Origin: Patescibacteria group bacterium | GTDB taxonomy: Bacteria > Patescibacteriota > UBA1384 | NCBI GenBank assembly: GCA_017992655.1 | Contig: JAGOOF010000001.1 | Location: 1 to 24,423 of the forward strand | Reading direction: 5' to 3' | Length of the DNA: 24,423 bases | Shown here: in pieces, positions 5,194 to 11,245 of the stretch | How positions within the stretch are numbered: position 1 is the first letter of the stretch | Layout of the letters: the number at the start of each line of letters is the position of its first letter | Program-made: the position numbers and the translations under genes | Notes under the pieces: generated by a model | The model's input: the letters and a program-made list of their open reading frames with translations, nothing else | Told to the model about the DNA's origin: nothing | The model's database searches: none

Positions 5194-5652
5194 TTATTTC
5201 TTATTCTCAACTTTTTTTACAATTTTCTTTTTTTCTTCCTTTGGTGCATCCGGTACTTTCTTCTCGTCCTTATTGTGTGCCGTTTTTTTCAGTAAATCTT
5301 CTGTTTTTTTAGTAAGCTCTATAATTGCCATAGGGGCGTTATCGCCCTTGCGGTTGGCAGTTTTTATTATTCGAGTAAAACCGGATTGAGTGTTGGCGAA
5401 ATTTTTCTTTAATATTTCGATGACTTTTTTTGCTGGTTTTTCAGCTCCACCAAGCATAGTAAGTGCAGTCTTATAGCCATTCAAGTCGTTCTCTTTTTTC
5501 GCGCGGCTAATAATTCTTTCGATATAACTTTGTACGAATTTTGCTTTGGACGTTGTTGTGACAATTCTTTCGTGTACCACCAAAGAAGCTGCTAAATTTC
5601 GGATTAGCAAAATACGATGCGCTTTCTTTCTGCCGAGCTTGAACGTTTTCAT
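5194..5652 (-). CDS. rplQ: 50S ribosomal protein bL17 with Lys/Glu-rich tail
   Basis: KLGRKKAHR, NLAASL, ERIVTT..KAK, SGFTRIIK, RKGDNAPMAIIEL. Follows rpoA. Confidence 0.95.
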   Translation of the reverse strand: MKTFKLGRKKAHRILLIRNLAASLVVHERIVTTTSKAKFVQSYIERIISRAKKENDLNGYKTALTMLGGAEKPAKKVIEILKKNFANTQSGFTRIIKTANRKGDNAPMAIIELTKKTEDLLKKTAHNKDEKKVPDAPKEEKKKIVKKVENKK

Positions 5653-5658
5653 CTTTTC

Positions 5659-6417
5659 TTACTTTTTTGATTTAGTTTTGCTTGTTTTACTTTTTTTCTT
5701 GGCTGGCTTCTCGTTGGGCATAGTATCAGCCAAATCGGTGTTTATTAACGTGAAATGGTCGATTAATATTTGGCTTGCGTTCTTAAGTGCCTCATAGGGA
5801 GTAATACTGCCATTAGTTGTTATGTCGATGGTGAGACGGTCAAAATTGGTAATACTGCCAACACGGGTATTTTCCACCTCAAAATGAACTTTTCTAATTG
5901 GTGTGAACGCACTGTCGAGCATTATTGTCCCAAGTGGGGTTTTTTCTTCAGTTTTCTTTTCACTCGCTACAAAGCCCCTCCCCTTTTCAATTACAATGTC
6001 GGCTTTTAATTTGCCACCTTTGCCTAGCGTTGCGATGTGGTAATCGGGGTCAATAATCATAACATCAGATACTGTTTTTATGTCTTTAGCCTTAACCTCC
6101 TTTGGGCCACTAACGTCAAGAGAAATAGTAACGGGATCATCTCCCTCAAGCCTGACTGGCAGGCCCTTAATGTTGAGAATAAATTCGACAATATCCTCAC
6201 GCATATTTTCAACTGTGGTAAACTCGTGGTTCACGCCGTCTATTTTTACTGAGCTTACGGCGCTTCCTTCTAACGATGCAAGCATTACTCGCCGTAGCGC
6301 GTTGCCAACTGTAACTCCATACCCTGGGCTTAATGGCTCAATAACAAATGTCGCGGCATTTTGCTCGCTACTTTTCGTGCTTAATTTTACTAATTCAGTT
6401 TCAGGTAATAAATACAT
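5659..6417 (-). CDS. rpoA: RNA polymerase alpha subunit, N-terminal domain only
   Basis: FVIEPLSPGYGVTVGNALRRVMLASLEG, HEFTTV, EDIVEFILNIK, GRGF, DSAFTPIRKV, RVGSITNFDRL, TNGSITP. AGGAG SD upstream. Confidence 0.96.
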   Translation of the reverse strand: MYLLPETELVKLSTKSSEQNAATFVIEPLSPGYGVTVGNALRRVMLASLEGSAVSSVKIDGVNHEFTTVENMREDIVEFILNIKGLPVRLEGDDPVTISLDVSGPKEVKAKDIKTVSDVMIIDPDYHIATLGKGGKLKADIVIEKGRGFVASEKKTEEKTPLGTIMLDSAFTPIRKVHFEVENTRVGSITNFDRLTIDITTNGSITPYEALKNASQILIDHFTLINTDLADTMPNEKPAKKKSKTSKTKSKK

Positions 6418-6430
6418 ATCTCTCCTCTTT

Positions 6431-7045
6431 TTATGTTAATCGTGAATAATATTCAACGACCAACTGTTCTTCGATAGTGGTTTGAATTTGCTCTCGCGAA
6501 GGTGTTGCCACTACTTTGGCTTTCTTGTTTTGCTCGGATGCTTCAAGCCATGCAGGAACAGTCGCTTTTTTGCGAGCGGATTCACGCTCTACTGTTTTTT
6601 TTGCTTCAATGGTTTGCCCCTCTGCCATTATGTATGAAGGGGTCTTTGTTTTTTTGTTATCAATTAATATGTGGCCATGAGATATGAGTTGCCTTGCCTG
6701 ACGGCGGCTCTCCGCAAAACCCGCGCGATAAAGGATGTTGTCTGCTCTGAGCTCAAGTAGCTGGAGAAGTCGCTCACCGGTGTTTTTCTTAGAACGGTTT
6801 GCAAGCTCAAAGATTCTTCTTAATTGTTTCTCGGAAATATAGTAGGTATAGCGAATTTTTTGTTTCTCTTTAAGCTGTCGGGCGTAGTCGGAAGGCTTGC
6901 CACGACGTGATTGACCGTGCTGGCCAGGGCCATAGGGACGGCGCGTCATAACATTTTTTTGTCCCTCGTCTCTCTCTCCTTTGAGAAAAAGGTTTTCGCC
7001 GACGGAACGTGATAGCTTAGATACTGATTTTACCGGCTGTGACAT
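6431..7045 (-). CDS. rpsD: 30S ribosomal protein uS4
   Basis: LFLKGER, GPGQHG, SDYARQLKEKQK, LLELRADNILYRAGFA.SRRQARQLISHGH, LVVEYYSR. Confidence 0.97.
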   Translation of the reverse strand: MSQPVKSVSKLSRSVGENLFLKGERDEGQKNVMTRRPYGPGQHGQSRRGKPSDYARQLKEKQKIRYTYYISEKQLRRIFELANRSKKNTGERLLQLLELRADNILYRAGFAESRRQARQLISHGHILIDNKKTKTPSYIMAEGQTIEAKKTVERESARKKATVPAWLEASEQNKKAKVVATPSREQIQTTIEEQLVVEYYSRLT

Positions 7046-9043: not shown

Positions 9044-9957
9044 TTTATAATTCCAATTACCGCGGAGGCATTAACGTTTGTGTTGATGAGTTGATCTAAG
9101 AGTAAAGAATATATAATAGGCTGTCTATTGCTTAAAAAGACGAGGTAATTGCCATCGTTTGATATGCGGAGATTTTTAATATCAGCAGGAGTCTGCGAGA
9201 GGTTGTAGTGCTCATTTTCTTTAATCATTTTTATTCCTTTTTCTGTATTGTCACCCGCATTTTTTGACACTGTATAGGCAATGATATTTCCTGTTGCAAC
9301 AAGCTCTCGAACGTAACCACTTTCTTTTTTAATAATTTTGCTAGCGGTGCCATTTTTATTGGCTTCCCATATTTCACTTCCATTTTCTTTCTCTAAACAG
9401 TAAATGAGGTTTTCGTTATCTTTCCAGCTCACGGACGTGATTTTACTGCTTGTGTTGGCAATACTGCCGATGTGCTGACCACTAGCTGATGTCAGCGCTA
9501 GTTTGTAGCCGAAATCGCGTTCCGCATTAGAAAATGTTATAAGTGCTGCTTCCTCACCGCTAGGGCTTAGTAGAGGTACTACGCCGTCGCTAATATCAAA
9601 AGTAGTTTCTTGTGTTTCGCCTATTCTATTAACAAGGTAAACTTCTTGCTTGTCGAGAGAGAAAAACGTGCCATTTTCACTACTAGGCGACGTAGTGCCT
9701 CCCACGTCATTCACTATTTTTTTATTTTCGCTAGTGGCAAGGTTCAAATGGAAGAGTGAATTACTGTTGATGTAAACCAAAGTACCTTCTATTTCATTTT
9801 GCTTTAAAGCGCTAATTTCTGAAACAGCGAGATCAATTTCTTTAACATTGTCTTCACGTGGTGTTGCCCCTCCATTGTGGATATAAAGAAAAGCGACTAA
9901 AACAACGAGTGAGACAGCAAGCAAGTAGCTAATAAGGCGCTTATTTTTTTTACTCAT
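9040..9957 (-). CDS. hypothetical protein with an N-terminal membrane anchor and a beta-rich, possibly TolB/PD40-like propeller domain
   Basis: 305 aa. Basic N-terminus, then LLAVSLVVLVAFLYI. LSPSGEEAALI, VSWKDNENLIY and ISNDGNYLVFLS resemble propeller blade turns. Tightly coupled to secY and map. Confidence 0.8.
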   Translation of the reverse strand: MSKKNKRLISYLLAVSLVVLVAFLYIHNGGATPREDNVKEIDLAVSEISALKQNEIEGTLVYINSNSLFHLNLATSENKKIVNDVGGTTSPSSENGTFFSLDKQEVYLVNRIGETQETTFDISDGVVPLLSPSGEEAALITFSNAERDFGYKLALTSASGQHIGSIANTSSKITSVSWKDNENLIYCLEKENGSEIWEANKNGTASKIIKKESGYVRELVATGNIIAYTVSKNAGDNTEKGIKMIKENEHYNLSQTPADIKNLRISNDGNYLVFLSNRQPIIYSLLLDQLINTNVNASAVIGIIK

Positions 9958-9958
9958 G

Positions 9959-11245
9959 CTAAATAAACTTATCGTATGTTTGTGTTGCCATTTGAGACTT
10001 AATTTGGTTCATTACTTCAATGGCAACTGCAACGATAATAAGGATTCCAGTTCCACCTAATGCAATTGTCCTAAATTCGGGCGTGCTTGCTTGTAATAAA
10101 TAAGGGATAATTGCCACAAGCGCTAAAAAGAGCGCACCAGTGGACGTGATTCTATAAAGAATAGTGTGAATGTAGCTTGCAGTCTCTTTGCCTGGCCTTA
10201 CGCCGGGAACGAAACTTCCTTGTTTCTGTAAATTCTCTGCGATCTGTTGTGGCTTAACGATAATTGATACATAGAAAAAAGTAAACGTCACTATTAAGAC
10301 AAAAAAGAGAGAGGCGTAAACATAGTTATTATTAATGAGTGAATTGACGGTATTTGCCGCTGAACGTAACCAATCCGAGCGTGCATCTGCAAATAGTTGC
10401 GCCAAAAATCCTGGAATCACTAAAATGCTGGTGGCGAAAATAATAGGAATTACGCCGGCAGCATTAATCTTGATAGGTAGATAAGATTCAACGTTTGTTG
10501 CGGAGCGCGAAGAGGCAACGCGGCGCGCATATGTAACCGGAATTCTTCTTTCTGCAAGCGTTACCCAAATTATTACAACGATCATCGCTATTATGATTAG
10601 GCCGTATAAGCTTGCCATGAAGATCTGCGTGGGGTTGCCTGCAACTACTTGTGTTAGGTTTTGTATACTTTGTGGTAAGCCGGCAATGATGCCAATCGCG
10701 ATAATCATCGATACACCATTTCCAATCCCTTTTTCACTAATTATTTCACCTAGCCACATTAAAAGTACGCTACTGGCCGCAGCTACGCTCAAAACAATAA
10801 ACATGTCCCAGTTGTTTTCTATTTTAACAACGTTTTGACTTGCCAGGAGTTTGATGAGGCCATATCCTTCTATGAAAGCAAGAGGAACAGAGGCAAGCCG
10901 GGTGTATTGGTTGATTTTACGTCTCCCATACTCCCCTTCTTTTTGGAGAGCTTCAAGCTGGGGGATAAGCATGGTGAGTAATTGAAAAGCAATAGATGCG
11001 GTAATATAGGGTCCCACCCCAAGCAGAGCAAGCGAAAAACGGCCCACTGCCCCACCTGAAAACATATCTAAAAGACCAAACATTTGGTTTTGCTCGAAGA
11101 ACATGCGTAATCCAGCTATGTCAACACCGGGAAGAGGAATTTGGGCGATGGCACGAAAAACTACAATCAATCCTAATGTTACAAGAATGCGCTTACGCAA
11201 ATCCTTATTTAAAAAAATAAGATTGAGTGATTTAAGTGGTTGCAT
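9959..11245 (-). CDS. secY: preprotein translocase subunit SecY
   Basis: [77 protein letters not shown]. Confidence 0.98.

Follow-up and report, generated by a model that had tools for sequence, protein, structure and literature searches.

The window, a stretch of 24,423 nucleotides from a Patescibacteria group bacterium (contig JAGOOF010000001.1, positions 1 to 24,423), carries on its minus strand an operon of the order rpsM-rpsK-rpsD-rpoA-rplQ, which encodes S13, S11, S4, the RNA polymerase α subunit, and L17, as assigned from open reading frames and Pfam matches. The rpoA frame (5659..6417, minus strand) was identified as RNA polymerase α from the ORF itself, Pfam and PDB matches, and an AF2 model. 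Its product has 252 aa and comprises the assembly domain (NTD) followed by a short tail. The TAA stop codon of rpoA occupies 5659-5661 and the ATG of rplQ 5650-5652, with 6 bp between the two genes; stop codon and spacer together span 5653..5661 (minus strand). The downstream gene, rplQ (5194..5652, minus strand), encodes bL17, a protein of 152 aa in which the L17 domain is matched at residues 16-113 (PF01196, E 9.4e-28). Past the end of this domain at residue 113, bL17 has its own C-terminal extension of ∼40 Lys/Glu-rich residues, ...KKTAHNKDEKKVPDAPKEEKKKIVKKVENKK.

Two Pfam families are matched by α far above cut-off, PF01000 at residues 57-172 (E 9.5e-32, 110 bits) and PF01193 at residues 27-222 (E 3.6e-22, 78 bits). 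No Pfam match to PF03118, the family of the α C-terminal domain (α-CTD), was found in the 252-aa protein. When all PDB chains were searched, bacterial α subunits matched it with E values down to 6e-67 and over the span of the NTD only; residues 16-222 align with residues 20-228 of E. coli α, including the NTD-only crystal chain 1bdf. The AF2 model, calculated from a 53-sequence alignment, has a mean pLDDT of 84.6, with a confidently predicted NTD whose final helix covers residues 207-228, and 36 NTD columns are invariant among the 53 homologs. From the secondary structure and pLDDT of the model and the alignment with E. coli α, the folded NTD extends over about residues 10-228 (5734..6390, minus strand). 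In place of the linker and the α-CTD, the protein ends in a tail of 24 residues (229-252; 5662..5733, minus strand), for which the model gives no secondary structure and a pLDDT that falls from 60 to 42. The C terminus reads ...DTMPNEKPAKKKSKTSKTKSKK. The description of this locus in the initial annotation, an α subunit that lacks the CTD, ends in a short Lys-rich tail, and is followed by rplQ 6 bp downstream, is correct in every detail.

Of the features of a bacterial RpoA, the NTD domains, the conserved gene order, and the single copy are present, and PF03118 with its flexible linker is absent. The protein has the layout seen throughout the CTD-less clade described below: an NTD-only α of ∼245-300 aa, a disordered tail that terminates in a K/R patch, and rplQ directly downstream. 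Since the NTD is conserved and the genome has no other α, the subunit can be inferred to assemble as α2ββ′ into an active core.

Integrity of the rpoA-rplQ junction and the search for a separate CTD

A short rpoA might be the product of a misassembly or a frameshift, and the source genome, a MAG of 64 contigs and 518,605 bases (519 kb) with 95% completeness and 0.3% contamination, could hold a CTD gene in its missing, unassembled 5%. The stretch 5200-6500 is present in sequencing runs of 15 studies, which cover wastewater, digesters, biogas reactors, and landfill. In assemblies of three independent DNA studies, on a landfill, a biogas fermenter, and an anaerobic digester, and of one metatranscriptome library, contigs run across the junction itself (5652-5659) with 0 indels and 0-4 substitutions. 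The contig from the RNA library (run X16) is not counted as proof of transcription, DNA carry-over being possible. These independent contigs without indels exclude a misassembly at the junction, a concern raised in the initial annotation, and the TAA stop followed 6 bp later by rplQ likewise argues against an artifact. Indeed, the spacer is too short for a CTD remnant and, as had been proposed, leaves no room for a hidden, frameshifted CTD. Moreover, the same architecture is common to every genome of the order, is identical in a genome of the same genus, and recurs among the best 120 of 6935 homologs from NCBI, JGI, ENA, and Logan assemblies, all of which are 245-317 aa long and contain PF01000 and PF01193 only. 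The nearest named proteins among these best 120 are labeled Candidatus Berkelbacteria or Patescibacteria group bacterium. On this evidence, the probability that the short rpoA is an artifact of any of these kinds is regarded as negligible.

The initial annotation had also suggested a search of the genome for a second rpoA or a free CTD frame. A single match to PF01000 was obtained in the source genome, showing that α is single-copy. With PF03118, a six-frame search at E values up to 10 returned one match in the entire genome (E 0.062, 12 bits, contig 27); it corresponds to the HhH part of LigA, an NAD-dependent DNA ligase of 674 aa, and hence is no CTD. Because Pfam may overlook a divergent domain, two class-specific CTD HMMs were built, the first from nine CTDs attached to rpoA and the second from 21 segments that included free-standing CTDs, and both were run unfiltered (--max) on the ORFs of ≥30 aa from all six frames. 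Neither gave a significant match in the source genome, the best hit being a 41-aa ORF with an E value of 0.05. Neither a second rpoA nor a free CTD was therefore detected by Pfam or by the class-specific HMMs, and misassembly, frameshift, and a hidden paralog can be dismissed to the extent possible with a MAG.

A different possibility is that α is split, with the function of the CTD provided in trans by a separately encoded α-CTD-like protein. Free-standing PF03118 proteins of 114-368 aa are indeed found in seven CTD-less genomes of the class (G031, G039, G041, G047, G059, G111, and G113), and one of them, in G039, combines a sigma-region-4-like domain with a CTD. The occurrence of such proteins is patchy, however; they are present also beside a CTD-bearing α (G142, G144, G161, and G126), and they have no recognizable part that could dock onto the α-NTD. 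Among the genomes of the source order, the source genome and its genus included, none has a free-standing CTD by Pfam (0/15), and the class-specific HMMs were also negative; in particular, neither method found a separate α-CTD protein in the 95% complete source genome. A split α is thus considered highly unlikely in this organism.

The free-standing proteins in relatives with a CTD-less α include five of 175-368 aa, at L002:598-1701:+ (G039), L076:632-1240:+ (G041), L077:804-1418:+ (G047), L075:697-1221:+ (G031), and L055:803-1393:- (G111). In addition, small extra proteins with one or two α-CTD domains are encoded at L054 (G126:C5:40500-43000, a 209-aa ORF), at L050, L052, and L053 (family f18), and at L051 (G161, family f41). 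The presence of extra CTD proteins in genomes whose rpoA retains the CTD indicates that paralogs with the CTD fold exist independently of CTD loss.

Distribution and history of CTD loss

The 14 remaining genomes of the source order are all without a PF03118 match. Within the GTDB class, it was detected in 78 of 162 species-level genomes, and exactly one α-NTD was present in 157 of the 162, so that about half of the class is without a CTD. The length of the rpoA frame in the class is accordingly bimodal, with ∼250-300 aa in CTD-less and 314-345 aa in CTD-bearing genomes. Some divergent CTDs escape Pfam (PF03118, E 0.001) and were recognized with a class-specific HMM, namely those of a 306-aa rpoA product (L072, G074) and a 340-aa one (L068, G037); Pfam tallies of CTD loss in the CPR are therefore slight overestimates. 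In an even sample across the phylum, 348 of 401 genomes contain PF03118, which indicates that the loss is restricted to a clade and is no general trait of the CPR.

To place the loss on a tree, as the initial annotation had recommended, a maximum-likelihood phylogeny of the α-NTD was calculated from 82 rows and 219 columns, with the CTD columns left out. All 42 CTD-less sequences, the source α among them, fall together on the same side of one branch, whose support is moderate (SH-aLRT 79). The CTD state can be explained on this tree by one change, compared with a mean of 27.7 when the states are shuffled. An independent tree of S11, S4, and L17 (32 loci) requires three changes, of which the well-supported branches force only one. 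The intergenic distance between rpoA and rplQ is short in both groups. At 39 CTD-less loci its median is 5 nt and it never exceeds 79 nt, so that none of them retains a decayed remnant of the CTD; at 35 CTD-bearing loci the median is 3 nt.

Together, the two trees fit one to a few ancient events of CTD loss, and the absence of the CTD is, as judged from these sequence comparisons, an old trait of the entire clade. The framing of the short α as a peculiarity of a single polymerase is not borne out, given the absence across the order and in about half of the class and the topology of the NTD tree. A correlation of CTD loss with the repertoire of activators, which had been proposed as a further check, is statistically out of reach because only one to three loss events are indicated and the genomes are not independent.

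Composition, origin, and possible role of the C-terminal tail

The last 20 residues of the source α contain nine Lys, which places it in the top five of 482 crude ORFs of the genome; the most frequent value among these ORFs is one, and Lys makes up 7.5% of the proteome overall, so that general composition does not account for the Lys-rich tail. At least nine Lys in the last 20 residues are found only in α, bS1, bS20, uS15, and bL31 (5/482, ∼1%), and bL17 has eight. Lys-rich tails in this genome are otherwise carried by ribosomal RNA-binding proteins and so appear to mark proteins that bind nucleic acids, with α the sole nonribosomal one.

A comparison of the 42 CTD-less tails with the interdomain linkers of 40 CTD-bearing α subunits shows that the tails are longer (median 34.5 aa, range 15-76, versus 15.5 aa, range 0-33), have a median net charge of +5.5 rather than −3, and contain a median of seven K/R in their last 15 residues, with a minimum of three, as compared with a median of one in the linkers. 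All 42 tails, which represent more than 20 GTDB families, are of low complexity; they often begin with an acidic stretch and always end with a basic one. Their sequences cannot be aligned between families. Even between the source α and that of the same genus, where the NTDs are 95% identical, the tail is mostly turned over and its composition is kept. The CTD-bearing families f11, f16, f22, f31, and f35 have a linker that is first acidic and then basic, with the same layout as in the tails. The tail is thus most simply explained as a linker that was kept after deletion of the CTD, and a natural, clade-wide CTD-less α with a linker-derived tail is considered very probable. The α-CTD would have been deleted in the ancestor of a large sub-clade of the class, and the charged linker between the domains would have survived as a short, disordered tail with a Lys-rich end.

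The tail may nevertheless be functionless as a protein segment, either because it is a neutral leftover of the linker or because its codons serve as an A-rich mRNA leader that aids the translation of rplQ. Tails that vary from 15 to 76 aa and cannot be aligned are compatible with loose selection on composition and equally with a tolerated linker remnant, and K-rich linkers already occur in some CTD-bearing relatives, so that the basic patch was perhaps inherited. What argues against neutrality is the presence of the basic terminal patch in 42 of 42 CTD-less α subunits, which represent >20 GTDB families and whose tail sequences have turned over completely, together with the rarity of K-rich C termini, which occur in ∼1% of the ORFs and otherwise on ribosomal RNA-binding proteins. 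This rarity speaks against the leader as well. The Lys codons do form an A-rich run immediately upstream of the rplQ start, but CTD-bearing relatives, in which the two genes are equally tightly spaced (median gap 3 nt), have no such tails, which weakens the idea that the codons are there to give rplQ an A-rich leader. On balance, a tail without function as protein is a possibility to which we would assign a minor share.

If selection has retained the tail, contact of its Lys-rich end with nucleic acid is plausible from its composition. The initial annotation had put forward a nonspecific DNA tether. The comparative evidence, a basic patch in every CTD-less ortholog and the restriction of such tails otherwise to RNA-binding ribosomal proteins, lends weight to a basic, nucleic-acid-directed tail; the tether itself is what we infer from it. 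Tentatively, the disordered tail may be a selected, functional substitute for the α-CTD in more than 20 families, tethering the polymerase electrostatically and without regard to sequence, either to promoter DNA on the upstream side or to nascent RNA. A weak, sequence-independent contact specifically with upstream DNA, which would stand in only for the nonspecific part of α-CTD function, is similarly offered as a conjecture.

The transcription apparatus and its relation to known polymerases

The α-CTD contacts UP elements, class I activators, and NusA, and it is commonly regarded as a universal bacterial module of transcription control, through UP elements, class I activation, and contacts with many factors. 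The source genome contains one sigma-70, and no Trans_reg_C (OmpR-type), LysR HTH, or CRP HTH domain was found in it above cut-off. A search of the genome, which is 95% complete, found neither omega (PF01192) nor the RNAP-interacting domain of CarD/Mfd (PF02559), and on the basis of this gene content the polymerase may be composed of α(NTD)2-β-β′-σ only. NusA, of ∼389 aa, is without AR domains; the interaction between the α-CTD and NusA-AR2 of E. coli consequently has no counterpart here, and the comparison with the NusA AR domains that had been suggested earlier becomes moot.

The genome, which is very poor in transcription factors, also encodes an unusual fusion of a regulator with a chaperone, in which an Xre-type HTH (PF01381, E 3e-15) precedes an Hsp20/alpha-crystallin domain (PF00011, E 6e-22) at the N-terminal side. 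This ORF lies on contig 59 of the source genome (G000), where the part covered runs from about 9409 to 10100 (L103:510-1199:+).

E. coli α truncated at residue 235 forms an active core and holoenzyme, which can still transcribe from core promoters and on which UP elements and class I activators are without effect (Igarashi and Ishihama, 1991; Ross et al., 1993, both as cited in PMC8321222). By analogy with this truncated α(1-235), the polymerase would be unable to use UP elements or α-CTD-dependent activators, in line with the expectation of the initial annotation for UP elements and most activators, and the lack of OmpR-, LysR-, and CRP-type regulators above cut-off is consistent with this. 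We picture the following course of events, in which rpoA is an intact, expressed-looking gene and its product a natural NTD-only α. The NTD would dimerize and scaffold β and β′, giving normal assembly of the core. As in E. coli α-235, promoters would be recognized through sigma contacts alone, and both the reading of UP elements and activation through α-CTD contacts would be impossible. Selection would retain the basic tail, which would most likely touch nucleic acid weakly, through charge and irrespective of sequence, with promoter-upstream DNA as the probable partner; only the nonspecific share of the role of the α-CTD would thereby be replaced.

The source α resembles E. coli α-235, and the α-NTD in the crystal 1bdf, in having an NTD that dimerizes and assembles β/β′ and in the absence of the CTD. 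In contrast to this laboratory construct, it is natural and clade-wide, and its disordered tail is rich in Lys and conserved. Archaeal Rpo3 (RpoD) and eukaryotic Rpb3/AC40, the homologs of the α-NTD, have PF01000 and PF01193 in common with it and also are without the α-CTD, but they heterodimerize with Rpo11/Rpb11, whereas the source α is a typical bacterial α (E 6e-67) encoded in the bacterial rpsM-rpsK-rpsD-rpoA-rplQ operon.

A CTD-less α is already known in print. Loss of the α-CTD with retention of the NTD has been reported for Hodgkinia and Tremblaya, extremely reduced insect endosymbionts, and for Euglena plastids (PMC8321222). In these cases, extreme drift acts on plastids or on organelle-like genomes of 140-180 kb; in the clade of the source genome, by contrast, the loss is fixed across many environmental families with genomes of 0.5-1 Mb, and the basic tail is conserved. 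The absence of the α-CTD in Parcubacteria was mentioned in a single sentence, given without data (Rangel-Chavez et al., 2021, PLoS One; PMC8321222). Parcubacteria share the phenomenon and the super-group with the source lineage, which belongs to a different class. In the main text and three supplements of the source cited for that statement (Nelson and Stegen, 2015; PMC4508563), the CTD is not mentioned, and rpoA appears there only as a core gene. A literature search on the α-CTD or rpoA in CPR, Patescibacteria, and Parcubacteria found no analysis of CTD loss, the only mention being that in PMC8321222. What the present analysis adds is the distribution within the class, the number of losses, the origin of the tail from the linker, and the conservation of tail composition.

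A large and environmentally common clade that has long been without the α-CTD represents a natural experiment on the minimal needs of a polymerase. Promoter models and regulator predictions derived from E. coli or B. subtilis ought not to be applied to such CTD-less organisms. The conserved basic tail provides a concrete hypothesis that can be tested cheaply. If the tail does act as a tether, a bacterial polymerase that apparently also does without omega, CarD, and the classical α-CTD-dependent activators would have a minimal way of its own to make upstream contacts.
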